From: a virus
Length of the DNA: 64,000 bases
Virus record (IMG/VR): IMGVR_UViG_3300029448_007456
Location: 50,779-114,778 of that record
Strand: one strand, 5' to 3'
The notes under the pieces are model-generated. The model was not told where the DNA came from. It was given only the letters and a program-made list of their open reading frames with translations, and did not search any database. The translations under genes were made by a program, and so were the position numbers. This document shows positions 40,950 through 59,901 of this stretch, in pieces (position 1 is the stretch's first letter; each line of letters opens with the position of its first letter).

Positions 40950-41021
40950 TTTTAGTCCTCCTGTCTATTGGCAAGGCGTGAGGTGCCCTGTGAATATGCT
41001 TCACATCGACCTCCATGGTAT

Positions 41022-42408: not shown

Positions 42409-42434
42409 AATATGTATAAACCAGGAGGTTGAAC

Positions 42435-42866
42435 ATGACAATGAGTTATAAGACTAAACAAACAGACACTTTCACACAATTTGTGAAGGGTGACGACAAT
42501 CCAGTATTTGCTGATAGATTGGCAAAACTACAAGAAGGCATTGTGATCATCATGAATGAACACAAATTAAGATATAAACACCTTGCAGAAAGAAACGCCA
42601 GAATAGAATACAACACAGGCAAGAGATACATCAAAATGATCTACTTGGATGGTGGATCCTACTCACGCAGAGTGCATGGCTTCATCGACAGGACCAATGG
42701 TGATGTGTTGATGCCCGCTGGCTGGAATGCTCCTGCCAAGTCAGGTGCTAGAGGTAATATATGGAATGATGACTATGGATTGAATGCCATGAATGAATAT
42801 GGTGTGAACTACAAAGGTCATGTTTCCAACAATGATTGGATCGTGGAGATTGTAAATGAAGGATAA
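42435..42866 (+). CDS. conserved early phage protein
   Basis: GKRYIK..VHGFIDRTNGDVLMPAGWNAPAK..RGNI; GGAGGTTG RBS. Confidence 0.75.
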   Translation: MTMSYKTKQTDTFTQFVKGDDNPVFADRLAKLQEGIVIIMNEHKLRYKHLAERNARIEYNTGKRYIKMIYLDGGSYSRRVHGFIDRTNGDVLMPAGWNAPAKSGARGNIWNDDYGLNAMNEYGVNYKGHVSNNDWIVEIVNEG

Positions 42867-43221
42867 TAAGAAAACTTTTTTTTATCAAACAGTGAAATGG
42901 GCCACTTGGTTCTGGGCCTTGTTTGGTATGGCCACGATAATATATGCCTACACCTTGTTATGGGACTTCAAACAACACGCCGAAACCTACAACGACTTTA
43001 ATGCAGTTCAATTGTCATGGGAAAAACCATACATCAGTGAATTAGAGTCATGGCACGTGGTGGTCGACTACTGTATGGATGAGGCCTGTGGCCGAATGCA
43101 AGGCGCAGACATTTATCACAGTAAGGACATCTGTGATGTCAACAGACAAGAAATTGTGGCAGATACCATAGATGTAGGAGGAGTTTGGGCCTACAGATGT
43201 GTTGAAAAACAAGACATTTAA
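42856..43221 (+). CDS. membrane-anchored hypothetical protein
   Basis: N-terminal TM helix; overlaps upstream stop. Confidence 0.6.
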   Translation: MKDNKKTFFYQTVKWATWFWALFGMATIIYAYTLLWDFKQHAETYNDFNAVQLSWEKPYISELESWHVVVDYCMDEACGRMQGADIYHSKDICDVNRQEIVADTIDVGGVWAYRCVEKQDI

Positions 43222-43226
43222 CATGG

Positions 43227-43254
43227 TTGACAGATTACCAACAGGAAATATAAT
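43227..43254 (+). promoter_or_regulatory. early promoter
   Basis: TTGACA-N16-TATAAT with ATTACCA half-site. Confidence 0.85.
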
Positions 43255-43287
43255 AGTATTATCAAACAAAGACAAAGGAGGTCGTGT

Positions 43288-43581
43288 ATGATACAAAAAT
43301 ACAACTTTAAAAGAGGCGAACTTATCACAGCCATTCACGAGATGAGCAGAGATGACTTAGACTTAGTCGTTGAAGCCGTGAAGTTGAGAAGAACTTATCT
43401 TCACAAACAGAATGCCAGAGAAATGCAGATAGGTGACTATGTGGAGTTTGATGGCAAACATGGCATGTCCATGAAAGGCAAAGTCGTCAAGAAGGCAATC
43501 AAATATCTCAACGTCGATTGCACCATGCATGGTGGATCTATTTGGAGAGTGCCAGCAGGTGCATTAAGGAAAGTGGCATAA
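43288..43581 (+). CDS. early hypothetical protein (SH3-like C-terminus)
   Basis: GGAGGTCG RBS; IGDYVEF..GKVVK..WRVP. Confidence 0.75.
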   Translation: MIQKYNFKRGELITAIHEMSRDDLDLVVEAVKLRRTYLHKQNAREMQIGDYVEFDGKHGMSMKGKVVKKAIKYLNVDCTMHGGSIWRVPAGALRKVA

Positions 43582-43796
43582 TGCTGATTAAAATCAACGA
43601 CGACATCAAGGTGGGGCCCCTAGAGGGCACCATCACTTCTATCTCAATCGGAGTCACACAAGGCGATCCAGCAGGTGAACTTGGCCCCAAGGCAGTTGAA
43701 TATGACACTGAACTAGGTTATCAAGGTGCAGTCACTTACATCACAAGAGCAGGCGACAGCAAGTGGGCCTACTTTAGACAGATTGAAGAAGCATGA
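43581..43796 (+). CDS. early hypothetical protein
   Basis: TAATG coupling; start MLIKIND. Confidence 0.65.
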   Translation: MLIKINDDIKVGPLEGTITSISIGVTQGDPAGELGPKAVEYDTELGYQGAVTYITRAGDSKWAYFRQIEEA

Positions 43797-43915
43797 GTCA
43801 TCCTGGCAACGATGAATTGATGGAAAGATATTATGATGAAGGCCTTGACCTTGGTCTATCAGAAGAGGAAGCAGAAAAATATGCCCAAGAAAAATTCGAA
43901 CAAGAATCCTACTAA
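43793..43915 (+). CDS. 40-aa acidic protein (not in ORF track)
   Basis: ATGA coupling; MSHPGNDELMERYYDEGLDLGLSEEEAEKYAQEKFEQESY. Confidence 0.6.
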   Translation: MSHPGNDELMERYYDEGLDLGLSEEEAEKYAQEKFEQESY

Positions 43916-44234
43916 GGACGAAGGTGTTTATACTGTGGACTCAGACAAACTGTCTTATGGCTATGTTTCAGGCACATATCGAGATCAAGGTTGCATCACA
44001 GTGACATTCAATGATAGAGTGCAACAAGCATGGCATCCTCATCACAATCACAAAGGCGGTGACTTCAAAATCAAGCCAGAATTGATTGTGGACTTCTTGC
44101 AGAAGATAGGAGTCACTTTACATTTTCACACAGACCGAAAACATTCATACTGTAATAAAATTGAATTGAAGCCATGGTCTGAATTTGAACAAACTTTGAG
44201 ACAATCAATTGACAAAAACAAAGAATACAATTAA
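43881..44234 (+). CDS. early hypothetical protein
   Basis: Probable start MPKKNS. Confidence 0.55.
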   Translation: MPKKNSNKNPTKDEGVYTVDSDKLSYGYVSGTYRDQGCITVTFNDRVQQAWHPHHNHKGGDFKIKPELIVDFLQKIGVTLHFHTDRKHSYCNKIELKPWSEFEQTLRQSIDKNKEYN

Positions 44235-44243
44235 AATATAATC

Positions 44244-44471
44244 ATGGCTATCATTATACAAAAAAATCAAAAGTTTTTTGATGAAGTGTCCAAGTTCAAT
44301 CCTAAACTTGCAAGACTTTTGGAGCATGAACATGGATGGACAGATAAATTAGTGCATAGGAGTGACGATGGAAGTATACCACAACCCAGAAGACGACAAG
44401 AAGGAACTAAAGCGATTGCAGATGATGATCCGATTAAAAACTTGGTTCCAGACAAGATGGGAAGAAATTAA
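44244..44471 (+). CDS. early hypothetical protein, leaderless
   Basis: TTGACA(44209)-N17-TAAAAT-6 nt-ATG. Confidence 0.65.
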   Translation: MAIIIQKNQKFFDEVSKFNPKLARLLEHEHGWTDKLVHRSDDGSIPQPRRRQEGTKAIADDDPIKNLVPDKMGRN

Positions 44472-44477
44472 ATCCTT

Positions 44478-44594
44478 ATGTGGTGGCTTGAAGCCATAGG
44501 AGCCACACTACTCTTAGGAGCCATTATTGTATTAAACTGTTTGGTTTTATTCGATGATGGCAAACGCAATGGGTCGAAGTCCCGCAAGGACTAA
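44478..44594 (+). CDS. 38-aa single-TM peptide (not in ORF track)
   Basis: MWWLEAIGATLLLGAIIVLNCLVLFDDGKRNGSKSRKD. Confidence 0.5.
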   Translation: MWWLEAIGATLLLGAIIVLNCLVLFDDGKRNGSKSRKD

Positions 44595-44660
44595 GCAACA
44601 AATTTCATTCGACCTCCAATCAATGAAAGCAAGGCTCGGAACTAATCTTCCGGGCCTTTG
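44595..44660 (+). ncRNA. candidate anti-SD sRNA, copy 1 (3' UTR hairpin plus terminator hairpin)
   Basis: TTTCATT-CGACCTCCAATC-AATGAAA (44603-44628), identical at 59758-59783; then 11-bp hairpin 44631-44658. Confidence 0.6.
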
Positions 44661-44679
44661 TCATCTATAAGTATTTTTT

Positions 44680-45807
44680 ATGAACCTAGACAGCATAGAT
44701 CTTATCAAATTGACTGACGTGCAAAGACTTAAACTCAATTTAAGATTGCCAAAACCAGATCAAGAAATCATAGGCGATATGTCAGTTTTGCCTATGACCT
44801 TGCTAATGGGATGTCAAATAAAAATTTTGCCTGAAAATGATCTCAGGCAATGGTTGAAAAAAGAAAATTGTTTTTTATTGGATGGTAAAAAAATATCATA
44901 TCCTAGTTTTTCAAATGACGCCAGTGATGCCACACAAGATTTTATTGACATAGGTGGAGATCACTTTTGTATAGGTGACTCAAGTTTGGGTGGGAGATAT
45001 AAAAATCACGTTGACAGTTTTTATCCTTCAACATTTTTTGGATTTAGTGAAAAAAATTTATTAGATATACCAATTGAGCAAAGACAAGGCTGGTGTTGCA
45101 CGGTGTCAAAAAGACGTCCCACGAGAGATTGTATAATTGATATTATAAAATCCAAACATATGAACAAATTCCAAGGTAATGAATGGCTATGCTATGATGG
45201 TATCGATGAAAGTCAAAAAGAGATCATTGATTTGATGTTCAGAAGTCCTCAAGGAGGTAAAGCCGCTTTCATTGAATCTTGTGATGGTATAGATAACCAA
45301 CCATCAAGAAACTGGAGTGATCGCACGTTCACAGACACATTTGATAAGCACCAATCACACACAAATCAATTCCTAGGAGGCATCAAAAATTCCGCAGGTG
45401 GAGACCTAGGACATTTATTAGGTCCATGGCATAGGACAAGTTTGATTGAATTAGTATCAGAAGCAACAGTTGATTGGTTTGACCCATCTGAAAAAATGGC
45501 AAAACCTCTCAGAGCAGGTATGCCGTTTGTGGTGGTTGCCAGTCATAGATTTCTATACCGTCTGCGTAAAATGGGTTTGAAAACTTTCCATCCCTACATC
45601 AACGAATCATATGATACACAAGACAATTGGCGTAAACGCACAGAAATGGCAGTGGACGCCATGTTTGATTTTTCAAAATCTCCACAACAACTAGAACAGG
45701 TTGCAGAAATATGCAAACACAATCAAAACATCATGGTCAAGATTGGAAAACACAATAACCTTAAAAGAACTGCAAAAAAATTGAAAAGGCTCATAACTTT
45801 TTCTTGA
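44680..45807 (+). CDS. glycosyltransferase-like phage protein, paralog 1 of 3
   Basis: ELVSEAT..SEKMAKPLRAGMPFVVVA..LRKMGLKTFHPYINESYD; TATAAGTA 6 nt upstream. Confidence 0.65.
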   Translation: MNLDSIDLIKLTDVQRLKLNLRLPKPDQEIIGDMSVLPMTLLMGCQIKILPENDLRQWLKKENCFLLDGKKISYPSFSNDASDATQDFIDIGGDHFCIGDSSLGGRYKNHVDSFYPSTFFGFSEKNLLDIPIEQRQGWCCTVSKRRPTRDCIIDIIKSKHMNKFQGNEWLCYDGIDESQKEIIDLMFRSPQGGKAAFIESCDGIDNQPSRNWSDRTFTDTFDKHQSHTNQFLGGIKNSAGGDLGHLLGPWHRTSLIELVSEATVDWFDPSEKMAKPLRAGMPFVVVASHRFLYRLRKMGLKTFHPYINESYDTQDNWRKRTEMAVDAMFDFSKSPQQLEQVAEICKHNQNIMVKIGKHNNLKRTAKKLKRLITFS

Positions 45808-46832
45808 TGGATATCAATAAGATAGATACAACTAATTTGTCTCTTAGAGAGCAAATCCTTATCAATCAAAAACTACCACGGCCTAAACAAAATGTATTTG
45901 GTGATATCCAAGCATTTCCTGTCACATTCAGATTGGGTTGTAGAATAGAACTGTCTGACAAACCACAATGGCACGATGGCAACGCTCCTGCCATACTAAT
46001 TGATGGCAAAAAAGTAAATTGGGGGCCCGATTCAACCTTAGATTTTGAAAAAAATCCAAATGAATATCTACTGTGTATTGGAGAATCTTCACTTCACGCC
46101 AAATACTCCAATCATATTGATCATCTTTATTCGCCTTATCTTTGGAAGACTGGAGTGATGCAGGAACAGATATCACTGGCTCAAAGGCAAGGGTGGTGTT
46201 GCACCATGTTCCGTAAAGATCAACACAGAGATTATATCAGTGAACTGTTGATAACCAAGTACCAAAATCAATTCACAGGCTCGGAATGGTTTTGTTATGA
46301 TCAAGGCCACAACTTCAAAGATCTATTCAAACATATGTTTCGCAAACCTCATCGCAAAAGTCTACAAAATCTGCTTGGCTCGGGCAATATGGAATTATTG
46401 AAAACATTTCCAGTGATATCTGGCGATGCAGATCACAAATCATTAGGACCATGGCACGCACAGACTCTGGTTGAGTTGGTGCCCGAAACGACCACAAGAT
46501 ATTTTGACCCCACTGAAAAAATCTACAAACCAATATCAGCAGGTATGCCGTTTGTGATGGTTGCTAGTCAAGGATTTTTATATCGTCTGCGTAAAATGGG
46601 ATTCTGCACGTTCCATCCGTGGATAGATGAATCCTATGATCAAGAACCTAATTGGAAGATCAGAACAGAAATGGCTGTGGCGGCTATGTTTGAATTTGTT
46701 CAATCTCCAAACAATCTTGAACATATTCAATCTGTGTGTGATCACAATCAACAGACTTTCCGTCGCATCAGACGGCATGATTACTTGTCAAGGATTGCCA
46801 AAAAACTTCGGCCACTAATTACTATTGAATGA
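45807..46832 (+). CDS. glycosyltransferase-like phage protein, paralog 2 of 3
   Basis: ELVPETT..TEKIYKPISAGMPF..LRKMGFCTFHPWIDESYD. Confidence 0.65.
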   Translation: MDINKIDTTNLSLREQILINQKLPRPKQNVFGDIQAFPVTFRLGCRIELSDKPQWHDGNAPAILIDGKKVNWGPDSTLDFEKNPNEYLLCIGESSLHAKYSNHIDHLYSPYLWKTGVMQEQISLAQRQGWCCTMFRKDQHRDYISELLITKYQNQFTGSEWFCYDQGHNFKDLFKHMFRKPHRKSLQNLLGSGNMELLKTFPVISGDADHKSLGPWHAQTLVELVPETTTRYFDPTEKIYKPISAGMPFVMVASQGFLYRLRKMGFCTFHPWIDESYDQEPNWKIRTEMAVAAMFEFVQSPNNLEHIQSVCDHNQQTFRRIRRHDYLSRIAKKLRPLITIE

Positions 46833-47893
46833 AAACACTCACAGGCATTGACATAGACTCGTTGGATGAACGACAACTCATTCTGATCAACCAAAGGCTG
46901 CCAAAGCCTTGTGAACACATTATAGGTGATGTCAAATGCCTACCTGTCACACTAAGATTAGGATGTAGAATCGAAGTGAGCAATCATCAGGACCTTCATG
47001 GAGGCAGATGCAGAGTTCTTTACATCGAGAACAAAAAAATAGGTTTTGGATTTGATGCCACTAGAGATTTTCTATATGCAGACTATCACAAAGACTTTGA
47101 AATAGTGTATGGTGACGCTTGGTTGACTCCTCCACAATCTGGCCACGTCAATACTCTGTTGACTTGGTCGTTCTATCACACACAATGGTTGGATTCTGTG
47201 CCTTCTATTGCAGAACGCAGGGGTTGGTGTTGCACCATGACACGAGCAGATCGCCACAGGCACAAGATATTGGATGTCATAGCAGACAAACACATGACAG
47301 GATTCACAGGCTCAGAATGGTTTTGTTATGATGAGGCCACTCATCAAGGCCATCACAGACCTGAACTGTATCCTTTTATGTTCAGACAGCCTGCAGGCAT
47401 TGATCACACAAGTCTGACCAGAGATGAAAGGCAGAGATTTAGACACTACAAAAGGTTGTCAAACTATAATCCACACCCTTTTCACAATCATGGCCATAGT
47501 TTGGCTGAATGGCATCTGACCAATCTGGTTGAACTGTGCCCCACCGCCAACTTGGAATATTTTGAATTTGACGAAAAGATTGCCAAACCAATCGCCGCAG
47601 GTATGGCCTTTGTGGTGGTGGCCGCACAGAACACTCTGGCAAGACTTAGAAGGATTGGTTTTAGAACCTTTAATCCTTTGATTGATGAATCATATGATCA
47701 AGAACCTGATTGGCAAAGCCGCACAGAGAAGGCAGTGGATGCGATGTTTGAATTTGTCAGCGGAGCACACGATCATCAACAATTACAAGAAATCTGTGAT
47801 CACAACAGATCAGTGATGGCTAGACTGCAACGATACACCTATGAAGACCGAGTGGCCAAAAGACTTAGACCACTTATATCTTGGCCTTCATAG
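46829..47893 (+). CDS. glycosyltransferase-like phage protein, paralog 3 of 3
   Basis: DEKIAKPIAAGMAF..LRRIGFRTFNPLIDESYD. Confidence 0.65.
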   Translation: MKTLTGIDIDSLDERQLILINQRLPKPCEHIIGDVKCLPVTLRLGCRIEVSNHQDLHGGRCRVLYIENKKIGFGFDATRDFLYADYHKDFEIVYGDAWLTPPQSGHVNTLLTWSFYHTQWLDSVPSIAERRGWCCTMTRADRHRHKILDVIADKHMTGFTGSEWFCYDEATHQGHHRPELYPFMFRQPAGIDHTSLTRDERQRFRHYKRLSNYNPHPFHNHGHSLAEWHLTNLVELCPTANLEYFEFDEKIAKPIAAGMAFVVVAAQNTLARLRRIGFRTFNPLIDESYDQEPDWQSRTEKAVDAMFEFVSGAHDHQQLQEICDHNRSVMARLQRYTYEDRVAKRLRPLISWPS

Positions 47894-47911
47894 ACAGCGA
47901 TAATTACTTGT

Positions 47912-48007
47912 ATGACCTTACCTTTTGTTCAATCTTGTATAGATTGTGGTGCCATTGTGTCAGATTCTGACATCTGTCCTCAGTGTGGTCAAATCATGCC
48001 TAAATAA
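47912..48007 (+). CDS. 31-aa zinc-ribbon peptide (not in ORF track)
   Basis: MTLPFVQSCIDCGAIVSDSDICPQCGQIMPK, two CxxC motifs. Confidence 0.55.
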   Translation: MTLPFVQSCIDCGAIVSDSDICPQCGQIMPK

Positions 48008-48011
48008 CACG

Positions 48012-49418
48012 ATGACCATATGGCTTCTACAACTGCCCAGATTAGATGACACCTTCTCATGGGGTCTCAAAGAAATCGAACACATCCTCACAGAATTGAA
48101 TCAACCAGTCAAGGTGTTGGATATCAATCATGCCATCACCAAACGATTCCATGACACAGAACATTGGAACATCATAGAGGATTATGGCATTTTAGGCAAG
48201 TCATTACTGCCAATCGAAGATGTGAGATCCTCTGTTGCTGAAGTGATTGATGTGATTGCACCAGAGGACATTGTGTTGTCTTGTGTGTTCACGGTTGAAA
48301 GCAGAGCCTGGTTAACTTTGGTACACTCAATGCTGAGACTCAGGCACGGCAAGGAGGTGTTGTTAGGCGCAGGAGGACAAGGTGTGAGAGCACCTGGAGA
48401 AGAAGGCAATCAGAGTGAATGGGCAGACTGGACCTTGGCCATAGGCTTAAGTGACGTGATGTTCCTAGGCGAAACAGTCAAAACCATGGCAGATTGGGTT
48501 TCTAGTGGATTTTCACAGCGTGGCAAACAATATTTCGCACACGATGCCTTTCCTCATCTTGGATTTTTGCCACCACAATCACTGCAAGATGATCTAGACA
48601 GAAAAATTAATATACCTAATTATTATCACTATGATTATCGTCATGAAGGACAACGTGGTATCAAGATACATTTCACTCAAGGTTGTGTCAAACAATGCAC
48701 CTTCTGTGATGTTTGGCACACTTGGCCAAAATTTGTGATGCGAGAACCACTTGATGTGATCAAAGAGATCAACCATTACGACAAGAATGGTCAGGTCAGT
48801 CACATATCTTTTCCAGACAACACCATCAATGCAAGTAATTCTAAATTCATTGAACTGTTAGAAAGATTTTATGACTGGAAGGATCAACACAATCGCCATG
48901 ACATCACTTGGAGTTCACAGTTTGCAGTCAAACCTATCAATCAATTTGGAGATAAGATGTTTGAGTTGATTGCCGCCACCAAAGGACACCTGTCAGTTGG
49001 TTTTGATCACGTGAGCGACTCTGTGTTGACACACATGAAAAAATTGTATGGATGGCAAGACATCACAAGTTTTATTGAAAGATGCAATCAACATCAAAGC
49101 ATCATCTCAGTGGCTGTTTGGTTGGTAGGTTATCCCACTGAAACTGATCAAGACTTTGATCAATATCGCAAGTTGATTCCTTTGCTTCAACGCAAAAATA
49201 CCATTCTATCACATAACGTATCCATCACAGGCATCAATAGAAATTCTCCTTTGGAACGTATAGTCACAGTTGATCATTCTCGTCCAATGGATTGGCACAA
49301 TGCTTTGGTCAACAAACAAACCAGACAACAGAGAAAACACATCCTGGACAAGATGTTGTTGGAACACAATGCAAGTTATATGATGTATAGATCAACCTTG
49401 AAGAGAGCAGAAGCGTGA
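48012..49418 (+). CDS. radical SAM protein (B12-binding-like N-domain)
   Basis: TQGCVKQCTFC, VGYPTET; start MTIWLL 5 nt after TAAATA. Confidence 0.8.
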   Translation: MTIWLLQLPRLDDTFSWGLKEIEHILTELNQPVKVLDINHAITKRFHDTEHWNIIEDYGILGKSLLPIEDVRSSVAEVIDVIAPEDIVLSCVFTVESRAWLTLVHSMLRLRHGKEVLLGAGGQGVRAPGEEGNQSEWADWTLAIGLSDVMFLGETVKTMADWVSSGFSQRGKQYFAHDAFPHLGFLPPQSLQDDLDRKINIPNYYHYDYRHEGQRGIKIHFTQGCVKQCTFCDVWHTWPKFVMREPLDVIKEINHYDKNGQVSHISFPDNTINASNSKFIELLERFYDWKDQHNRHDITWSSQFAVKPINQFGDKMFELIAATKGHLSVGFDHVSDSVLTHMKKLYGWQDITSFIERCNQHQSIISVAVWLVGYPTETDQDFDQYRKLIPLLQRKNTILSHNVSITGINRNSPLERIVTVDHSRPMDWHNALVNKQTRQQRKHILDKMLLEHNASYMMYRSTLKRAEA

Positions 49419-49825
49419 TCACATCTGGCGAGTTTGTGGTGCACATTGATTATGATTTGTCTCCCATTGTGATGATATCTGCAGACAAAAAAATTCTCAT
49501 CAACAAAACATTGCCTGACCAAGGAAGCATCACTGTGACCATACCAAATCAAACCAGCCTTGTGAGAATGTTCATACAAGGCAAACTCAATGACACCATT
49601 GTCAAGGATGGTGTGATTGTGAGAGATCAAATGATCAAGATCGTTGGTGCAGAACACCAAGGCATTCAGTTTGATGAACCGCACTTTCTCAATCTTGTCA
49701 AACCACGTCTGCATCATCAAGACACAGTGATGCCCTCTGTGTATCTTGGTTATAATTTTCCTTCGTATCTTGAATTCAAACCTCGTGCTTTGGCTGACGC
49801 ATTAATTGACTCCACTGTTGGTTGA
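49415..49825 (+). CDS. hypothetical partner of radical SAM; paralog of 550..1119
   Basis: GTGA coupling; NDTIVKDGVIVRDQMIKI motif. Confidence 0.6.
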   Translation: MITSGEFVVHIDYDLSPIVMISADKKILINKTLPDQGSITVTIPNQTSLVRMFIQGKLNDTIVKDGVIVRDQMIKIVGAEHQGIQFDEPHFLNLVKPRLHHQDTVMPSVYLGYNFPSYLEFKPRALADALIDSTVG

Positions 49826-49855
49826 CACAATACCAACTGGCTTTACAATAGGAGT

Positions 49856-50083
49856 ATGAAAGTTGACAAACAAACACTTCGCCACTTCAAAGTCTTTCTG
49901 GAGCAACAGAAATCAGTGATGGAAAGTGCTATGGATGGTGACGAACTCAATACCAATACAAGTTATTATGGTTGGTATGAGGCCACTAATCATTACATCA
50001 AAGTCATTGAAAAATCTGAAAAAAACCCCAATTATTCGTTCTTTTACGGGGACTTGACAGATTGGAAAAAGGAATTATTATAA
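49856..50083 (+). CDS. early hypothetical protein, leaderless
   Basis: TTGACA(49822)-N16-TACAAT-6 nt-ATG. Confidence 0.65.
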   Translation: MKVDKQTLRHFKVFLEQQKSVMESAMDGDELNTNTSYYGWYEATNHYIKVIEKSEKNPNYSFFYGDLTDWKKELL

Positions 50084-50111
50084 TATTAATTAATCGACAA
50101 GGAGGTCGCAA

Positions 50112-50321
50112 ATGGGAGAAGTAAAATCCTGGGCAATGGATCAAGAAGATGAATTCTATGAAATTGCTATTAGAGAATCAAACAATCACATAGACTATCA
50201 GACATTTGAAACACACATGGTTGAGACCTATGGTGATATGATTATTAGTGCCCCAGAAGAAGTCTTACAGAATCTTGGCATGATATATGGAGAGCATACA
50301 CAGGAGGTGGGTCATGCCTAA
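50112..50321 (+). CDS. early acidic protein
   Basis: Promoter TTGACA(50054)-N16-TATTAT; GGAGGTCG RBS. Confidence 0.7.
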   Translation: MGEVKSWAMDQEDEFYEIAIRESNNHIDYQTFETHMVETYGDMIISAPEEVLQNLGMIYGEHTQEVGHA

Positions 50322-50958: not shown

Positions 50959-51115
50959 CCTACTAGAAGTTTTGAAAGCAGATCTTAAGATATTAAAGTC
51001 TGCTATCAAGAATCCAGATGCTCCTCACTCCACCGATGAGCAGATCAATAGGATGATTAAGATGGTGGATCAAATGATAAAGGAGGCTAAGAATGGCAAT
51101 AAACGGAAAAGTTGA
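50951..51115 (+). CDS. 54-aa protein (TTG start, not in ORF track)
   Basis: AAGGAG RBS; fills gap and overlaps both neighbours. Confidence 0.5.
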   Translation: MLNLLEVLKADLKILKSAIKNPDAPHSTDEQINRMIKMVDQMIKEAKNGNKRKS

Positions 51116-51356
51116 TACATTGAAGTTTTGGTTCTTACCAAGAAAATGTAGAACACTATTAGAGCAACACAAGGCACACCCATTAGAAAAGGCAGTGGCC
51201 AAACAGATCCCAATCAGTGGCAATGAAGAAACCATTGAACAGTTGGTGCAGATGTTGAAACTGAAAAGGCGTTTCAGAGGTCCTAGAACACAACTGACAT
51301 TCATGAGAGATTGTGTCAAGGCAGATGCTGAACGTGTTTCTCTTTATAACAAATAG
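51093..51356 (+). CDS. early hypothetical protein
   Basis: AGGAGG RBS; RRFRGPR..DCVKADAERVSLY. Confidence 0.65.
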   Translation: MAINGKVDTLKFWFLPRKCRTLLEQHKAHPLEKAVAKQIPISGNEETIEQLVQMLKLKRRFRGPRTQLTFMRDCVKADAERVSLYNK

Positions 51357-51541
51357 TGGCAAAGTCAAAAACACATTACAAAGATCCTAACAGACGATCC
51401 AATTGGTTCAAAGGGGAGCAGGTGCCTACAAGGCGTCTTCCCCAGGAACGAGCCAAACGGTTTGATGAACTAATAGAATCTGGCCTATCTGAAGCAGAAG
51501 CATTGGCTAGAGCATTGGAAATTATCCCAAAACATCGCTAA
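51356..51541 (+). CDS. early hypothetical protein
   Basis: Start overlaps upstream stop. Confidence 0.55.
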   Translation: MAKSKTHYKDPNRRSNWFKGEQVPTRRLPQERAKRFDELIESGLSEAEALARALEIIPKHR

Positions 51542-51562
51542 AATCAACAGTTCTCGTGGTGG

Positions 51563-51590
51563 TTGACAGATTACCATATGGTAATACTAT
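51563..51590 (+). promoter_or_regulatory. early promoter containing a perfect 16-bp palindrome
   Basis: TTGACA, G, ATTACCATATGGTAAT (51570-51585), TACTAT. Confidence 0.85.
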
Positions 51591-51596
51591 AATAGT

Positions 51597-51983
51597 ATGA
51601 CAACAACAAACACATTCATCAAAGAGAACTTTTCTTACTCAGGTGGATATTTGACATATGATGATGGAGTTGATAGACATTTTATCGCTCGTTTCAAGTA
51701 TGTTCCTAAATCATCTGCCACAAAGTTTATGAACTTTTTGATCAAAAACTTCACTTGTGAAGAATACTTGGAGAGAGCCAATCAAGAGGCTCCGCTCACA
51801 ATATTGGAGAGCAAAGGTTATTGCTCTCCTGAAATGGCCAGATTGGCTCGTAGATGGGGATATGCTCCTACTCTTGCAAATGCTCATCAGGCTCTGATTG
51901 ATCAAACCAATCAGGATTTGGTTGGAATGGGTAAAGATCCAATAACACCACAGCAGGCGGAGGAATTTTTACAGTCTGCCTAG
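51597..51983 (+). CDS. conserved early phage protein, leaderless
   Basis: FIARFKY..FLIKNFTCEEY..APLTILESKGY. Confidence 0.7.
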   Translation: MTTTNTFIKENFSYSGGYLTYDDGVDRHFIARFKYVPKSSATKFMNFLIKNFTCEEYLERANQEAPLTILESKGYCSPEMARLARRWGYAPTLANAHQALIDQTNQDLVGMGKDPITPQQAEEFLQSA

Positions 51984-52043
51984 TTGACAGATTGTAGATT
52001 GGTAATATTATAATAATAAGACAACAACAAGGAGGTCGTTGAT

Positions 52044-52343
52044 ATGGGATTTGAAAGAAGAGCAAACATTACAATAAAAGAAGAGTTCATCGAACATTTT
52101 GGCTTTGATTGCACTCCAAGACTAGAATGGACAAACGGATGTCTGTTCGCAGATACTTCTAGCAAAGAAGAAGTTCAATTGATTAAAGAAACACTCGAGT
52201 GGTATTCCGGTGGCTACAAGGTGATTGTATCTTGTTTGAAGGCCACAGACACTGAACCATGGGATCAGTATGCATTTGACATCACTGACGAAAAGTTTGA
52301 AAGCACATGGTCAGAATTTTCAGAGGAAGGATTATTAGCATGA
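52044..52343 (+). CDS. early hypothetical protein
   Basis: Promoter TTGACA(51984)-N16-TATTAT; GGAGGTCG RBS. Confidence 0.7.
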   Translation: MGFERRANITIKEEFIEHFGFDCTPRLEWTNGCLFADTSSKEEVQLIKETLEWYSGGYKVIVSCLKATDTEPWDQYAFDITDEKFESTWSEFSEEGLLA

Positions 52344-52519
52344 TTAAACAGATAGTTGGCATCAACGAAAACTTCAGCAAAAGGGATCAAGAATATGTCT
52401 CTGAACTGATATGGGAAACTGTCCAAGAACAGGACGCATTCAAAGACTCAAAGGGCATCACAGGTATTTCATATACCATAACAGTGGATGTCCAAGAAGA
52501 GGAGGAAGACCATGCTTAG
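52340..52519 (+). CDS. early acidic protein
   Basis: ATGA coupling. Confidence 0.6.
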   Translation: MIKQIVGINENFSKRDQEYVSELIWETVQEQDAFKDSKGITGISYTITVDVQEEEEDHA

Positions 52520-52877
52520 ATGGGACAACAGAGAGCGTCAATACCATGCACCCTTTGACATCATCATTCAAACAATACCAGAGGAAGTCCGCATCAGAGA
52601 CATGTTTGATGATTCCATCAATCCAGACACAGGCAAATCATACTATGATGTTGACTACATGGAACAACAGGTTGAGAATGGTTCAGCAGAATGGTCAGTG
52701 GTTAATGTTCAGTGTATGCTGAATGGCGTTGAATTAGGGTCATTTGCCATAGGGGGTGCTTATCTGGATGAACACTATGATTTGATGTCATTTGTTTACG
52801 ACAATGGCATGATTGACGAAGCGAAGAATGATGCTAAAATATGGTTAGACAACACAAAGGAGGTCGTGTATGCTTAA
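52512..52877 (+). CDS. early hypothetical protein
   Basis: GGAGG RBS; start MLRWDN. Confidence 0.65.
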   Translation: MLRWDNRERQYHAPFDIIIQTIPEEVRIRDMFDDSINPDTGKSYYDVDYMEQQVENGSAEWSVVNVQCMLNGVELGSFAIGGAYLDEHYDLMSFVYDNGMIDEAKNDAKIWLDNTKEVVYA

Positions 52878-53028
52878 AGAACATGAAGAATATGTGGATC
52901 CAGGAGAAGGATACTCATCAGAAAACAAATGGAAAGTGGCCTATCAGATACTGATGGACTATTTTGAAGACTTGCCTGAACAGACTCAACAGGAAGCAGA
53001 TGAAAGATTGAAGGCGGTGGATTTATGA
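52870..53028 (+). CDS. 52-aa acidic protein (not in ORF track)
   Basis: GGAGGTCG RBS; MLKEHEEYVDPGEG..AYQILMDYFEDLPE.. Confidence 0.7.
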   Translation: MLKEHEEYVDPGEGYSSENKWKVAYQILMDYFEDLPEQTQQEADERLKAVDL

Positions 53029-53270
53029 GTGATATCATTACATCAGACGGTCTGACTCGTCAACAACTCATCGATCGTTTGGTTGCAGACGATGTAAGGC
53101 TGATGATGAAAGGTGCTGGAGCAAATGACTTTGGATTTGTGGCACACAGATTTGAACATGGCTTCAAAGGTTATGACAATATGTCTGATGGTGAATTAGC
53201 CTTGGAATGGCGTGAGATCAGTGAATATTGGAATGACACAGAACAGGAGAGAATGTATGATGTGGCTTAA
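53025..53270 (+). CDS. early hypothetical protein
   Basis: ATGA coupling; GFKGYDNMSDGEL. Confidence 0.65.
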   Translation: MSDIITSDGLTRQQLIDRLVADDVRLMMKGAGANDFGFVAHRFEHGFKGYDNMSDGELALEWREISEYWNDTEQERMYDVA

Positions 53271-53475
53271 AGGAGACAGAGTTAAGACTATCACAGAACC
53301 ATACATCACAGGCATTGTGGTTGAAGATCTTGGCAACAAGGTTGTGATTGAAGATGATCACGCAGAAACTGATGATTGCAGACTAGAGTTTCACAAAAGT
53401 GATTTGGAAGTATTCAAAGGTGGCCAGTATCATCCAGTAGATGGCAACACATGGAAAGAGATCATAGGTTATTAA
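53257..53475 (+). CDS. early hypothetical protein
   Basis: AGGAG RBS; KGDRVK..GIVVED. Confidence 0.6.
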   Translation: MMWLKGDRVKTITEPYITGIVVEDLGNKVVIEDDHAETDDCRLEFHKSDLEVFKGGQYHPVDGNTWKEIIGY

Positions 53476-53530
53476 ACGTGAGACTTGTGAACTTGGTGTT
53501 TGGGGCACACAAAATTGGCAACTCGATCCT

Positions 53531-53899
53531 ATGGCTTCTTGGCTATGGAACCGCCAAGGTACGCCATGGTGGGAAACAAAATATATGGGGCATTTTGGAC
53601 AAGTGAAAGATCCTAAACATTCAGAATTGATGGAGTTAAGATCATCTGCATCAATCAAAACATCAGCAGAATATGGAGGCATAACCTTCCAGCATCAAGA
53701 TGGTGAAATAGAAGAATACGATGGGTGGCAAGTCAGATTAAATGGCTACAAGTTTCCTAGGCCAAGATATGACTTTCATTCTGAAACATGGGATTGGAAA
53801 GCAAGATATGAAACACCTAATACTCCTGAAGGCAAACAAGAGGCCATTGACCTTGCTGTGCGTCAAAGTGGGCATTGGTGGGGAGAAATGTTGAGATGA
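53531..53899 (+). CDS. early hypothetical protein (start uncertain, possibly GTG 53603)
   Basis: Ends overlapping next ATG. Confidence 0.5.
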   Translation: MASWLWNRQGTPWWETKYMGHFGQVKDPKHSELMELRSSASIKTSAEYGGITFQHQDGEIEEYDGWQVRLNGYKFPRPRYDFHSETWDWKARYETPNTPEGKQEAIDLAVRQSGHWWGEMLR

Positions 53900-55056
53900 C
53901 AGAAGAGAACAAACAGGTTGAGGAATTAAGTTATCCTTTCAATCCAAAACTGCGAGACAGAGAGGACTCAAAATTAGAAATTTTGAATCCATTGCAGAAT
54001 ACAAAAAAGAAACTGGTGCCATTAGCAGATAGAGTTAAACAATTGAGAAGGTCTAACCTATGGAAGGCCCAAATGAGAAATTGGAAAGATAATAACAAGT
54101 TTATGAATGTGGACTTACTCCCTAAGATTAAAAAGTTTAGATTAGGTGACACTATGATTGATGAGGACATACAAAGACTCTTAGTGACTGAGGCTTGTTC
54201 AAATAGAATATGTCATTATCAGAAGTTTGGTGAATATTACATACAAACACCTTATGTTCAAGTGATGTCAGATGGAACAATTAAGAATATTAATGGTCAA
54301 CATACCACAACGGTTGTGGCTACTTTAATAGAAGAAGGACGAGTAAAAGGATATACAGGTGCTTGGCAAGACTTTGAATTGGAAATGGCTTATATAGAAA
54401 CAGACAATGATGCCATTGCTAGAAGAGCCTTTAATCTTTGGAATGGTGCAGGGCAAGAAAAACAGACACCATTTAATATTTTGAGAGGTAAAGTTCTTTC
54501 AGTAAGAGTTGATGGAGATAGAACTTTTGAAGACGAAGTTGAAGCAGAAGAAAGACTTTCGGCTGTTGAAGAAAATTTAAGTTTTCCTGTTCCAGCAGAA
54601 AATTCATTGGCTCATCTTCCTGGGGCTTTCACTAACTTTGGAACATACAATTTAATGGATAAGACGGCAGTGGCAGAGGCATCTAGATGGCACAATGAAT
54701 ATTTCCATCATAAGACAATCCATGTATCTTTGTGGTTCATATTTAAAGACTTTGGTGATGCAGAAGGATTCAGTTATGACAACAAATTTTTGAAAGAGAT
54801 TGCAGGGTTGGTTAAAACTTATTTTGATGATTTAAGTGAATTTGCTTTATCTTACAAGAATGTCTATCAAAAATATTATTTAGATATCAACAATGTAAAG
54901 GTGAAGACTGCTCCGGACAAAGGATATGCCTGTGCCTTATTGCAATTATACAAGGCAAACGGTGGTAAACAGAAATTGCCTGCAGAAATATTGAATAGAT
55001 ACCCAGACCTTGTTGACTATTGGGATGATAGTTATAAGCAGGGTGGCGATGAATAA
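53896..55056 (+). CDS. hypothetical protein with ParB/DGQHR-like motif
   Basis: EDIQR..INGQHT..ARRAFNLWNG. Confidence 0.55.
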   Translation: MTEENKQVEELSYPFNPKLRDREDSKLEILNPLQNTKKKLVPLADRVKQLRRSNLWKAQMRNWKDNNKFMNVDLLPKIKKFRLGDTMIDEDIQRLLVTEACSNRICHYQKFGEYYIQTPYVQVMSDGTIKNINGQHTTTVVATLIEEGRVKGYTGAWQDFELEMAYIETDNDAIARRAFNLWNGAGQEKQTPFNILRGKVLSVRVDGDRTFEDEVEAEERLSAVEENLSFPVPAENSLAHLPGAFTNFGTYNLMDKTAVAEASRWHNEYFHHKTIHVSLWFIFKDFGDAEGFSYDNKFLKEIAGLVKTYFDDLSEFALSYKNVYQKYYLDINNVKVKTAPDKGYACALLQLYKANGGKQKLPAEILNRYPDLVDYWDDSYKQGGDE

Positions 55057-55438
55057 AAATTATAACCTATATACCATAATCAATAGGATAGGTAGGCCTG
55101 GGTTTGGCATAGCCACAGACCTAGATGGTAGACAATGGCACTATATTGATCACTCCGGTGATTGGATGTATATGCCTATAACCTGGAGCGGCAATGAACA
55201 TCATATTAGATCGTTGGAGAAGGATTGCAAAAGACAATTTTTTGATGTTCGATGGAAACCACACGAAGCAAAGAAAAAGAGAGAATGGCTAGACGACAAT
55301 TACCTAGGTCCTAAAGGAACAGAGTTTGATCAGACAGGAGTAAAGACTATCATTGATTATATCAAATCAGAAATTGAAAAAAGTGATTTAGATATCCAAA
55401 TACTTCATGAAAATTATAAAGTCCACGAAATATATTAA
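55049..55438 (+). CDS. hypothetical protein, GIY-YIG-like
   Basis: LYTI..GFGIATDLDGR..Y..LE..REW; overlaps upstream gene. Confidence 0.5.
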   Translation: MNKNYNLYTIINRIGRPGFGIATDLDGRQWHYIDHSGDWMYMPITWSGNEHHIRSLEKDCKRQFFDVRWKPHEAKKKREWLDDNYLGPKGTEFDQTGVKTIIDYIKSEIEKSDLDIQILHENYKVHEIY

Positions 55439-55534
55439 TAAAAAGTCATATTTTATGCGACTTTTTAGTAGGTTGACACATTACCATCAGAATATATTAT
55501 AATATTAACAACAAAAACAACAAGGAGGTCGTTT

Positions 55535-55921
55535 ATGTTAGATACTTTAGAAAAGAACAAAGAATTACTTCAGTTTAATGCTGGAGGCGTTGAACCAGGT
55601 AGAATATGGATCGAGGCTAGTGAGGCTGGCAAGAAAGCGGTGCATGATTACCTCGCTGAACATGAAGAGCCAATGTATTGTGGTTTTGCCAATGTTAAGA
55701 TTCGTCCTGCAAAAGGATCATTTGTGAAATGGTTGAAAGAAAGAAAAATTGGTGACAAAGGTTGGAATGGTGGATACTCCATATCCTACTATGACTTCAT
55801 GGGTGATGTCCGTGAGTCTTTCACACAGTCAATGGACTTGAAAGAAATGGGTTGTGATGCATTTGTGGCCGTGTTGAGAAAGTATGGCATGGATGCTTAC
55901 ATGGAAAGTAGGGCAGACTAG
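55535..55921 (+). CDS. conserved early phage protein
   Basis: Promoter TTGACA(55473)-N16-TATTAT; GGAGGTCG RBS; CGFANVKI..TQSMDLKE..SRAD. Confidence 0.75.
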   Translation: MLDTLEKNKELLQFNAGGVEPGRIWIEASEAGKKAVHDYLAEHEEPMYCGFANVKIRPAKGSFVKWLKERKIGDKGWNGGYSISYYDFMGDVRESFTQSMDLKEMGCDAFVAVLRKYGMDAYMESRAD

Positions 55922-55985
55922 TTGACAGATTGTTGATTGGTTTTATAATAGTATTAAGAAAACATTTTACACAAGGAGGTCGTAA

Positions 55986-56501
55986 ATGGCAACAAGAGCA
56001 AGAATAGGATTACAAAAAGAAGATGGCACAATCATTGCCTCATATCAACATTGGGATGGTTATCCTGGTGGACTTGGATACAATCTAGAAGATCACTGGA
56101 CCGATTCTCAGAAAGTCGGTGAAGCAATTGAATTGGGCAACTCATCCAAGTGGGGTCAGTTCATTGGCACCAAGATTGATTTTGATGATAGGGATTGCGA
56201 GACTTATGAATATCAGAATGTCTACTACATGAGAGACAGAGGTGAAAAAGATCAAGAGGCAAGAGTCTACAAAGACGAAGCAGACTACTTGGCAAATGGC
56301 TTCAACTCAGGCGAAGAATACATCTATCTCATGAAGGTGGACACAGGCAAGACTGACTACTTGGGCAAGGCCAGAGGCGAATGGTTCTATGCTGACTACA
56401 ACAATCAGACAATGAAGCCATTAGAAGCAGACGCCATCCATGAGCATATTGAAATGCTCAAGAGACATCTTGAAAGAATGAAGGAAAGGAAGGTGGCATA
56501 A
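55986..56501 (+). CDS. conserved early phage protein (HWDGYP family)
   Basis: Promoter TTGACA(55922)-N16-TATAAT; GGAGGTCG RBS; MATRARIG..YQHWDGYP..EYIYL. Confidence 0.8.
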   Translation: MATRARIGLQKEDGTIIASYQHWDGYPGGLGYNLEDHWTDSQKVGEAIELGNSSKWGQFIGTKIDFDDRDCETYEYQNVYYMRDRGEKDQEARVYKDEADYLANGFNSGEEYIYLMKVDTGKTDYLGKARGEWFYADYNNQTMKPLEADAIHEHIEMLKRHLERMKERKVA

Positions 56502-59438: not shown

Positions 59439-59572
59439 TGAAATTGATCATTGGTTTTGCCATAGGTTATTTTGTGGCCACCACACCCATTGGACAGGAG
59501 ATGCTTCCCACCGTGCAGGCATATTCTGTGCAACTGTTAGAATGGATTACCAACACAGTAAGGAGTATATGA
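59438..59572 (+). CDS. 44-aa membrane peptide (not in ORF track)
   Basis: TAATG coupling; MKLIIGFAIGYFVATTPIGQEM.. Confidence 0.6.
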   Translation: MKLIIGFAIGYFVATTPIGQEMLPTVQAYSVQLLEWITNTVRSI

Positions 59573-59754: not shown

Positions 59755-59832
59755 CAGTTTCATTCGACCTCCAATCAATGAAACTCGTGGGCGGACTTTC
59801 GTCATGAATGCTAGTTCGCCTGCGTTTTATTT
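59755..59832 (+). ncRNA. candidate anti-SD sRNA, copy 2 (3' UTR hairpin plus intrinsic terminator)
   Basis: AGTTTCATT-CGACCTCCAATC-AATGAAACT (59756-59785), then 12-bp hairpin 59786-59824 with three G-U pairs and a U tract. Confidence 0.65.
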
Positions 59833-59867: not shown

Positions 59868-59895
59868 TTGACAGATTACCATATGGTAATATTAT
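59868..59895 (+). promoter_or_regulatory. early promoter with second copy of the 16-bp palindrome
   Basis: TTGACA, G, ATTACCATATGGTAAT (59875-59890), TATTAT. Confidence 0.85.
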
Positions 59896-59901
59896 AATAG
59901 T

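Follow-up and report, generated by a model that had tools for sequence, protein, structure and literature searches.

The DNA analysed here is a stretch of 64,000 nt, called the window throughout, that belongs to the record, 114,778 bp (114.8 kb) long, of an uncultured marine phage. The phage is T4-related, as late TAAATA motifs are present in the record and Kyanoviridae are found among its relatives. On the plus strand of the window, we observed six cassettes, each made of a sigma-70-type promoter, a leader and a start codon that opens an ORF, as well as two hairpins that are each followed by a second, terminator-like hairpin (Table 1). A further promoter of the early type points leftward. Hairpin 2 begins 3 nt past the stop of the ORF 59542-59754 and, like the ORF 44244-44471 upstream of hairpin 1, this ORF gave no Pfam match.

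Table 1. Coordinates of the early cassettes, hairpins and neighbouring features in the window
Feature	Position	Strand	Description
Early cassette 1	43227..43290	+	Promoter TTGACA-16-TATAAT 43227-43254, A-rich leader, tag AAGGAGGTCG 43275-43284, ATG 43288, 97-aa ORF
Early cassette 2	50054..50114	+	Promoter 50054-50081, tag 50099-50108, ATG 50112, 69-aa ORF
Early cassette 3	51984..52046	+	Promoter 51984-52011, tag 52029-52038, N5, ATG 52044, 99-aa ORF
Early cassette 4	52813..52872	+	Promoter TTGACG-16-TAAAAT with TG 52813-52840, tag 52857-52866, ATG 52870, 52-aa ORF
Early cassette 5	55473..55537	+	Promoter 55473-55500, tag 55522-55531, ATG 55535, 128-aa ORF (phrog_22149)
Early cassette 6	55922..55988	+	Promoter TTGACA-16-TATAAT 55922-55949, tag 55973-55982, ATG 55986, 171-aa ORF (phrog_1987)
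Leftward early promoter (41053-41026)	41002..41053	-	Leader with GGAGGTCG 41014-41007, 2-5 nt before GTG 41004
Hairpin 1	44603..44628	+	7-bp A/U stem, 12-nt loop starting CGACCUCC (44610-44617); 3' region after ORF 44244-44471
Terminator-like hairpin	44631..44679	+	G+C-rich hairpin 44631-44658 and distal T-run, downstream of hairpin 1
Hairpin 2	59757..59784	+	26-nt element 59758-59783 plus closing G-C pair, loop CGACCUCC 59765-59772
Probable intrinsic terminator	59786..59832	+	12-bp G+C-rich hairpin followed directly by TTTTATTT; probably closes the early array
AAA+ ATPase gene	60020..61075	+	351 aa, phrog_1250; conserved landmark beside the anti-tag hairpin

An extended ribosome-binding site is shared by six early starts

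The motif GGAGGTCG was found on the plus strand at 43277, 50101, 52031, 52859, 55524 and 55975, separated from the ATG by N3 at five of these sites and by N5 at 52031. It is part of a 10-column block, AAGGAGGTCG, that is invariant over the six sites, and the leaders that precede it are unstructured and A-rich (48-68% A, 8-16% C, 0-12% G). This tag keeps a fixed spacing to the ATG (N3-N5) but lies at varying distances from the -10 box. We counted exact matches in the window and compared them with those in 100 dinucleotide-preserving shuffles. GGAGGTCG occurred nine times vs 0.18 expected (maximum 3) and AAGGAGGTCG six times vs 0.03 expected. The rest of the 114,778-bp record adds no copy of GGAGGTCG, leaving nine genome-wide: the six plus-strand starts, one leftward RBS-like site and two hairpin-loop complements. 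Moreover, GGAGGT is followed by CG in 9 of its 24 genome copies, although CG makes up only 1.6% of dinucleotides.

These counts bear out the sequence-only reading of this DNA, which had proposed an extended RBS shared by six starts and less than one chance occurrence of the 8-mer per window, with six copies on the plus strand and three on the minus strand. It had placed five of the six starts behind a promoter; all six have one, the site at 52859 being preceded by TTGACG-16-TAAAAT with an upstream TG. It had also considered that the leaders could be simple recent duplicates with long flanking identity, which they are not, since the flanks are only about 40% identical. GGAGGTCG is best explained as a Shine-Dalgarno (SD) core (GGAGG) with the first three spacer bases of a repeated promoter/A-rich leader/RBS cassette, one of which would head every early transcription unit in this large, marine, T4-related phage. 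The leftward copy at 41007-41014, in front of a 20-codon GTG-started ORF read by eye, is a possible seventh target.

The tag has an exact complement in the loops of two hairpins

The other two minus-strand matches of GGAGGTCG (44610-44617 and 59765-59772) correspond to CGACCTCC when read from the plus strand and lie within an exact 26-nt repeat on the gene strand, which forms hairpins 1 and 2. In both, the loop CGACCUCC is the exact 8-nt complement of the tag, and the plus strand of the 115-kb record offers this loop six perfect 8-nt targets, every one of them a promoter-proximal start. The predicted duplex between the loop and the start regions reaches -16.4 to -19.9 kcal/mol vs -12.6 to -14.0 kcal/mol for the canonical 16S tail. 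The stem, 7 bp of A/U, has little stability (-3.4 and -7.5 kcal/mol for the two hairpins), and hairpin 1, when folded in a longer context, competes with an upstream GGGUCGA segment. Neither hairpin folds better on the plus than on the minus strand, and therefore their assignment to the plus strand rests on context. No Rfam family was matched at gathering score in the window or at the loci of seven relatives.

Related phages have their own tags and matching loops

Contigs of related phages contain the same promoter-leader-RBS cassette, at 10-20 copies per 20 kb, with a 3' extension of the lineage's own: GGAGCGAA, GAGAGGTA, GGAGTTGAA, GAGGGCA, GGAGGTGT or GGAGCCA. Each contig carries 6-15 copies of its own tag vs 0-4 of foreign tags, and eight or more different extensions are in use among relatives that share 50-74% protein identity. 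This diversity speaks against the host 16S rRNA 3' tail being itself complementary to GGAGGUCG, an explanation that we find barely credible. To our knowledge, the textbook bacterial tail ...GAUCACCUCCUUA is near-universal, and most other genes of the phage use an AGGAG(A)-type SD or none. Judged by the textbook tail, 16S pairing does not explain the CG, and the eight or more extensions in close relatives reinforce this.

In seven lineages, a hairpin located beside the conserved AAA+ ATPase gene, or at most about 1 kb from it, complements the lineage's own tag; in lineages A-F, it lies 45-470 nt from the ortholog of the window gene at 60020-61075. Of eight candidate tags tried on the 1-kb flanks of the AAA+ gene, the one with the longest complement was the genome's own in each of the 10 genomes, which represent six lineages. 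Similarly, early-strand intergenic loops complementing the own tag numbered 10 in 17 genome cells vs 4 in 119 foreign-tag cells, and the foreign intergenic matches of the first screen sat inside tRNA genes. The hairpins had first been chosen by complementarity, and five lineages had already revealed the position when the position test was devised; genuine out-of-sample confirmation is limited to lineages E and K, genome G008 and the six GC-richer C-type loci. In G008, the RBS (GGAGCGAG) and the loop (CUCGCUCC) are altered together. A seventh pair, GGAGCCA with UGGCUCC, was found out of sample at five loci, and the out-of-sample loci also include six more AUUCGCUCC loops and one more lineage-E hairpin. 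Among relatives, stems diverge by compensatory changes and loops are kept. For three weakly defined tag classes (L275/L277, L308/L323 and L279), no matching loop was detected within 400 nt of the AAA+ gene, and one genome, G014, has a hairpin like that of the window, yet zero GGAGGTCG starts in its 84 kb. The sequence-only reading had named a hairpin RNA as one of two possible kinds of reader, and the seven lineages whose hairpin near the same AAA+ gene complements their private extension support this branch of its proposal.

Gene order near the 171-aa, 128-aa and AAA+ genes varies between lineages. The ortholog of the 171-aa gene has the cassette in some lineages and none in others, and its promoterless orthologs lack the tag, indicating that the tag goes with the cassette and not with the gene. 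This would be expected if the tag were a by-product of concerted evolution, the cassettes being homogenised by recombination, the CG a neutral hitch-hiker and the loops coincidental. Promoter spacers are indeed partly conserved here, and the promoter-early stem-loop (PeSL) cassettes of T4-type phages, in which promoter, SD and start codon are combined, vary from one phage pair to another (PMC4122927, PMC2839356). However, ten invariant columns between flanks of such low identity indicate selection on the block, not recent copying, coincidence cannot yield complements of the own tag beside the same gene in seven lineages, and an inverted match of 8-11 nt is probably too short to be homogenised by recombination. 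We therefore regard concerted evolution as distinctly unlikely.

The strand on which the hairpins act was also considered. Read on the minus strand, the elements of the window give GGAGGTCG-A-ATG followed by 5-codon ORFs, and the lineage D loops give GAGTTGAAATG followed by 2-3 codons on the opposite strand; an antisense transcript showing an RBS tag and a mini-ORF could act as a CsrB-like decoy for a tag binder, and the hairpins of lineages A and B fold slightly better in this orientation. We judge this very unlikely, because no good minus-strand promoter lies nearby (best score 9/12), the spacing from SD to ATG is 4 nt vs 6-8 nt in real starts, and both the neighbour genes and the terminator-like hairpins that follow have plus-strand orientation. 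Moreover, on the early strand, T-runs follow the hairpins of lineages C, E and K, and these hairpins fold much better there.

It is highly improbable that the 8-mer is a double-stranded DNA site, working in either orientation, for a phage DNA-binding protein such as an early-transcription repressor or roadblock. The nine copies do cluster in the early region in both orientations, and an AAA+ protein of the initiator/clamp-loader clade always adjoins the inverted copy. In contrast, the spacing is kept to the ATG and not to the -10 box, the motif contains a canonical SD, and the inverted copies always lie in loops of hairpins with co-varying stems, which a duplex DNA site would not need.

Proposed mechanism

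Because relatives changed tag and loop together and the loops hold the exact complement, the tag is most likely an antisense-RNA address. From the sequence evidence, we put at roughly 60% the probability that it is read by a small antisense hairpin RNA, which would damp or shut off early-gene translation. The three extra bases would then form a lineage-private tag, not read by 16S rRNA, and the conserved CG is best explained as a part of this putative address. The hairpin would be made as RNA from the strand of the early genes, at the 3' termini of early units (44603-44628 and 59758-59783) and each time ahead of a terminator-like hairpin. The loop CGACCUCC would pair with the tag, the 5' arm of the stem could lengthen the pairing toward the AUG, and the ribosome-binding site of all tagged early mRNAs would be occluded, so that repression is the outcome we infer. 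The hairpin may work in trans, with a 3'-end fragment that accumulates, or in cis, with the 5' and 3' parts of one transcript pairing. A trans mode is suggested by the duplicated or tandem hairpins of several phages and by the tag being common to many transcription units. In relatives, the AAA+ mRNA has a tag at its 5' end and a loop at its 3' end.

Comparison with known systems

We found no description of this tag/hairpin family in the literature searched. The six cassettes of the window resemble the PeSL cassettes of T4-type phages (Arbiol 2010, PMC2839356; Comeau 2014, PMC4122927), which are repeated composites of early or hyperplastic regions with a sigma-70-like promoter, an SD and a start codon, and whose consensus is lineage-specific. 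In contrast to PeSLs, most promoters here lack an immediately preceding stem-loop: when the 70 nt in front of each promoter were folded in this record and in one relative (G007), no consistent hairpin emerged, and only the anti-tag hairpin stands out. Moreover, the conserved block here has a private 3' extension of the SD mirrored by a distant hairpin loop, of which PMC4122927 makes no mention.

The Cuckoo/CcsR (alpha-r14) sRNAs of Alphaproteobacteria (PMC4615179, PMC8034643) likewise combine variable stems with a conserved anti-SD-like loop. They are cellular RNAs with a fixed pyrimidine-rich loop, CCUCCUCCC, while the loops here, CGACCUCCAAUC, depend on the lineage and match the private tag on the phage's own early genes. 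Cuckoo RNAs have two to four adjacent hairpins, each with CCUCCUCCC, in the 3' UTR of a DUF1127 (ccaF) gene, from which they are processed; here, each site has a single anti-tag hairpin, the next hairpin in the window lacks the motif, and the AAA+ gene is the neighbour that is conserved. The present hairpins also have no Rfam match.

In phages P1 and P7 (immI), the c4 antisense RNA uses its loops to bind the RBS region of a phage mRNA that comes from c4's own transcription unit. Among related phages, matched changes of RNA and target give specificity, and c4 controls one operon (icd-ant) of a temperate phage. The present loops are alike in their exact 8-nt complement to an RBS region, with all six plus-strand sites being starts, and in the seven tag/loop pairs with matched changes between related phages. 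They differ in that the phage is T4-related and of lytic type and that six or seven scattered early starts are addressed by a single loop, and they have no sequence or Rfam similarity to c4.

A cis version of the proposed model exists in the icaR mRNA of Staphylococcus aureus, in which a 3' UTR anti-SD motif blocks translation by pairing with the mRNA's own SD (PMC3868564). From their positions, the tag at 43277 with the hairpin at 44603, and the tag at 55975 with the hairpin at 59758, are candidate pairs of this type on one mRNA. However, icaR is a single cellular gene, whereas the tag is common to many transcription units.

Finally, early mRNA start regions with a GGAG-type SD and its downstream context are also the targets of the T4 RegB/RegA shut-off (PMC1702504, PMC3014915), the effectors of which are proteins, unlike the RNA reader proposed here. 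The GGAG of early SDs is cleaved by RegB, whose complete site comprises 11 single-stranded nt and extends 3' beyond GGA (PMC1702504). A lineage-specific RegB-like endoribonuclease or RegA-like repressor could thus read the SD and its extension, the hairpins being unrelated or competitors. The phage is a relative of T4, the leaders are unstructured and A-rich, and the region that is private here is the one of the RegB site 3' of GGA. The T4 site is, however, A-rich after GGAG (PMC1702504), in contrast to the G-U-C-G and variable N3 found here, and a protein reader would not account for conserved hairpin loops that complement every private tag. No match to PF10715 (RegB) was obtained at E<=1 in this record or five relatives (about 480 kb), nor any to PF01818 (RegA) in this record, so the protein branch of the sequence-only reading, such as a RegB-like endonuclease or a translational repressor, gained no support; such absence is weak evidence, the records being fragments that are 7-39% complete. 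We consider a protein reader unlikely.

Significance

The linked AAA+ gene is carried by more than 344 IMG/VR contigs, some up to 264 kb. The tag and anti-tag hairpin could be an RNA-based address code that related phages have diversified against each other, an idea that we offer tentatively and with little confidence. The accumulating hairpin of a resident phage would shut off its own early genes on schedule, and would also silence the early genes of a superinfecting phage carrying the same tag; such silencing would select new tag/loop pairs and explain the fast divergence of tags between lineages. If the antisense pairing is real, a large, widespread group of uncultured marine and lake phages would control its whole immediate-early gene set via one short RNA together with a private SD extension, an RNA counterpart of the T4 RegB/RegA shut-off. 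It would constitute a natural regulon addressed by sequence in the SD-to-AUG spacer and provide a ready-made set of orthogonal RBS/anti-RBS pairs. It would also explain a recurring oddity of phage annotation, namely that bases downstream of the SD are conserved although they have no pairing partner in 16S rRNA.

A ten-base tag at early gene starts of the window

The sequence-only reading had claimed that an 8-mer extending the RBS is enriched at early gene starts, with six plus-strand copies all at starts and three copies on the minus strand. Exact counts bear this out, since GGAGGTCG was observed nine times against 0.18 expected from shuffles. The ten-base block AAGGAGGTCG, here called the tag, was observed six times against 0.03 expected, and the rest of the genome outside the window holds zero further copies. 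The six plus-strand copies lie 3 nt (once 5 nt) 5' of the ATG of an ORF. A sigma-70-type promoter is present upstream of all six and not only of five as had been stated, the one missed being that of the 52859 site (TTGACG-16-TAAAAT with a TG upstream). GGAGG is scarce genome-wide (70 copies, both strands counted), the strong SDs cluster at 42.4-59.3 kb of the window, and 9 of the 24 genomic GGAGGT are followed by CG, which makes up only 1.6% of all dinucleotides. One minus-strand copy lies in a leader behind a leftward early promoter and may mark a seventh tagged start, and the two others are CGACCTCC read on the plus strand.

If the tagged leaders were simple recent duplicates, long identity would be expected around them. 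The ten columns of the tag are invariant and the flanking 20 nt are ~40% identical. Moreover, the coding sequences behind the tagged starts have no common family: most are without any family match, and the three with a match each belong to a different PHROG. Recent duplication is therefore not the explanation of the shared block.

Two promoters of the window have a -10 box ending 6 nt before an ATG, suggesting leaderless mRNAs; one of them would yield a short transcript made of an ORF and hairpin 1. Elsewhere, six genes of the plus strand, one of them a radical SAM gene, have neither an SD nor a sigma-70-type promoter, and TATAAGTA upstream of the ATG at 44680 is possibly a late-type promoter (Table).

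Related phages carry private tags

The window is the final 64 kb of a 114,778-bp virus record (G+C 38.6%) that is ~34% complete according to CheckV. Its cyclase protein shares 62% identity with that of Methylophilales phage Melnitz (Kyanoviridae) and 46% with that of Pelagibacter phage HTVC008M, and many genes of the record have a TAAATA-type late motif immediately 5' of the ATG; on these grounds, the record is part of the genome of a large marine T4-related phage. CheckV completeness was 7-39% for the record and all the relatives fetched. This implies genome sizes of about 250-350 kb, far above those of Melnitz or HTVC008M. Nucleotide searches of the region found no close relative among GenBank phages, and a structural protein used as a query found no relative. 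Relatives were reached only by the cyclase protein and then by early proteins in IMG/VR, where orthologs of the 171-aa gene are present on 58 contigs; 21 whole contigs were fetched and genes were called on them. Because Melnitz has neither the tag nor an ortholog of the AAA+ gene described below, it is not useful as a model for the tag/hairpin system. Its whole genome (MZ577097, L118-L120; 141.5 kb) contains only 16 GGAGG, both strands taken together, none of the 16 being followed by A or T, a strong avoidance of the full SD.

Early regions of the contigs carrying the 171-aa ortholog are arrays of very short operons, each with a TTGACA-N16/17-TAtAaT promoter, a leader rich in A and an RBS that is strongly conserved, and the lineages differ in the RBS bases 3' of the SD core (Table). 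Each tag has 6-15 copies in its own contig against 0-4 in other contigs. The tag goes with the cassette rather than with the gene; 171-aa orthologs located inside an operon have an ordinary SD. That close relatives differ so much in their extensions speaks against explaining the tag by complementarity to the host 16S tail. A candidate conserved small RNA is an 18-nt stretch (ACGCTCCCGATGGGCGAA) shared without change by two lineages whose RBS tags differ; in both it comes directly 3' of a minus-strand early promoter.

Hairpin loops are complementary to the tags

A G+C-rich hairpin stands 3' of each copy of the 26-nt repeat that forms hairpins 1 and 2 of the window, and TTTTATTT comes directly 3' of the second of these G+C-rich hairpins. 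The duplex predicted between the hairpin loop and the six start regions gives -16.4 to -19.9 kcal/mol for the duplex only, partly because the 5' stem arm (which contains CAU) pairs with the AUG region. On the same start regions, the canonical 16S tail gives -12.6 to -14.0 kcal/mol, likewise for the duplex only. Rfam, tRNA and tmRNA searches gave no match for the elements, and the 24-nt hairpin core had no exact match in IMG/VR. A scan with ACAAGGAGGTCGNNNATG gave over 117 unrelated single matches and was uninformative, while a gapped hairpin pattern found only G014, a lineage D contig, and chance matches that are RBSs of opposite-strand genes. A tRNA-like origin of the hairpins was considered since CGACCTCC and TCGCTCCT sit in tRNA genes of the lineage E contig G004, but ARAGORN detects no tRNA in the window, and this origin was therefore rejected.

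Early-strand intergenic stretches were screened for at least 8 nt of complementarity to the 11-mer tag of each lineage. Complements of the own tag in hairpin loops gave 10 matches in 17 genome cells, against 4 in 119 cells for foreign tags; the foreign intergenic matches of the first screen were tRNA genes. In the lineage C contig G008, RBS and loop show a paired change.

The hairpins lie between early-strand genes. Those of lineages C, E and K have T-runs 3' on the early strand, and those of C (G002, G007) and E fold far better on this strand (e.g. -28.3 vs -16.7 kcal/mol); the K hairpin folds just marginally better or worse on it. G-U pair counts (34 vs 20) were overall indecisive as to the strand. 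For the two hairpins of the window, folding energies do not separate the strands; the plus strand is favoured from the context and the terminator after hairpin 2.

Lineage D has a second hairpin much like that of the window, with a terminator (Table). The two contigs concerned, G014 and G016, have no GGAGGTCG start. The loops of these second hairpins fit SDs of GGGAGG type, present at internal genes and at the AAA+ gene itself, which suggests that there is a second class of tag. In the window, a stretch situated after hairpin 2 and before the AAA+ gene could represent an ncRNA or else a leaderless mini-ORF of 8 codons.

Table. Features of the window, and tags and hairpin loops of the lineages
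Feature	Location	Strand	Sequence	Details
Hairpins 1 and 2	44603-44628; 59758-59783		CGACCTCC within the repeat	exact 26-nt repeat; 7-bp A/U stem, 12-nt loop
Minus-strand GGAGGTCG copy	41007-41014	-		2 nt before GTG of 20-codon ORF
171-aa gene	55986-56501			
AAA+ gene	60020-61075			
Leaderless-type promoter	51563-51599			
Leaderless-type promoter	44209-44246			predicted short transcript with ORF 44244-44471 and hairpin 1
Genes without SD	44680-50083	+		radical SAM gene, 47946-49418
Possible late-type promoter	8 nt upstream of ATG at 44680		TATAAGTA	
Stretch after hairpin 2	59868-59985			perfect early promoter, then ~85 nt with 11-bp long-range stem, pyrimidine-rich interior
18-nt stretch	L121 near 6467; L141 near 15521	-	ACGCTCCCGATGGGCGAA	
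Tag, lineage A (this phage)			AAGGAGGTCG	
Tag, lineage B			AGAGAGGTAA	
Tag, lineage C			AAGGAGCGAA	
Tag, lineage D			AAGGAGTTGAA(ATG)	
Tag, lineage E			AGAGGGCAAA	
Tag, lineage F			AGGAGGTGT	
Tag, lineage G			GGGAGGTT	
Tag, lineage H			AGAGAGGCAAA	
Tag, hairpin/tag family on other genomes			AGGAGCGAA	
Loop, B (G001)			ACCUCUCU	second, tandem hairpin with ACCUCUC
Loop, C (G002, G007)			AUUCGCUCC	9 nt; 14-bp stems quite different between contigs; T-run 3'
Loop, C (G008)			CUCGCUCC	matches AAA+ gene's own RBS GGAGCGAG
Loop, D (G003, G014)			CAUUUCAACUC	complement of GAGUUGAAAUG, SD through AUG
Loop, D (G016)			UUCAACUC	two in tandem in one loop
Second hairpin, D (G014)	L263 1340-1361	-	CGACCUCCC or CCUCCC	loop of either second hairpin
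Second hairpin, D (G016)	~130 nt after AAA+ gene			
Loop, E (G004)			UGCCCUC	terminator apex; found only on looking beside AAA+ gene
Loop, F (G005)			ACACCUCC	then UUCG-capped G+C-rich hairpin

The hairpins adjoin an AAA+ gene

Every hairpin with an anti-tag loop adjoins an ortholog of the AAA+ gene (tblastn). In lineages A and D it precedes that gene by 105-470 nt, whereas in B, C, E and F it lies 45-370 nt after it, and the gene order around it varies between lineages. Position and sequence were tested together in flanks of 500 nt either side of the AAA+ ORF. Of the eight tags, that of the lineage itself had the longest complement in 10/10 genomes, with one tie; for six independent lineages, chance would be about (1/8)^6, an optimistic figure because the position was first noticed in the first five lineages.

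Alignment A1 of nine AAA+ orthologs gave 80 further loci from a set of at least 344 relatives; the contigs of some measure 230-264 kb. Among the tag-callable loci, five had a new pair, GGAGCCA and a terminator loop with UGGCUCC, on two different stems (lineage K), and one additional lineage-E hairpin was found. Six GC-richer C-type loci had CCG-AUUCGCUCC-CGG within a variable outer stem and then a strong terminator, 810-930 nt downstream of the AAA+ gene. Over seven C-type copies, RNAalifold gave double (compensatory) changes in 3 of 7 pairs, the loop being invariant. Three weakly defined tag classes among these out-of-sample loci had no matching loop.

The AAA+ protein contains Walker A and B motifs (GPPGVGKS, FDDCD), an SRC motif and an N-terminal beta domain. 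At least 344 IMG/VR contigs (up to 264 kb long) encode it with ~46-51% identity, and its start codon is TTG in several lineages. Its predicted model (mean pLDDT 84) matched clamp-loader, Hda and RuvB-type AAA+ proteins, generically only, and these fold matches gave no link to RNA.

A proposed antisense hairpin RNA as reader of the tag

The sequence-only reading had proposed as reader of the motif either the hairpin RNA or a protein such as a RegB-like endonuclease. The co-variation of tag and loop supports the hairpin branch, at the level of sequence; for the protein, RegB (PF10715) had no match in this record and five relatives and RegA (PF01818) had none in this record, all of these records being incomplete. 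The most economical reading is an antisense anti-RBS hairpin RNA, located at the 3' ends of early transcripts, that would pair with the common start region of the tagged early genes.

The hairpin is duplicated in this phage and at L307. This duplication, the tandem hairpins of G001 and the two anti-tags per loop of G016 suggest that dosage matters, and action in trans is therefore indicated. In lineages B, C and E, the predicted AAA+ mRNA is monocistronic, and tag and loop stand at its opposite ends. This layout and the paired change of G008 are equally compatible with 5'-3' pairing in cis of the icaR type (PMC3868564).

In the P1/P7 c4 RNA, RNA and target change in a matched fashion, as tag and loop do here. 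The proposed antisense hairpins have in common with the 3' UTR-derived Cuckoo/CcsR sRNAs variable stems and a fixed anti-SD-like loop (PMC4615179, PMC8034643). Like T4 RegB/RegA, they would be directed at the start regions of early genes (PMC1702504, PMC3014915). PeSL cassettes of T4-type phages have the same architecture, with SD and start codon within the cassette (PMC4122927), although most promoters here are without an upstream stem-loop. In full-text searches of the literature, no paper described an early-gene tag of a phage that co-varies with a hairpin. The motif is confirmed as an observation and its function stays putative: we infer repression as the outcome by analogy, and the hairpin may instead have a role in stabilisation or timing.
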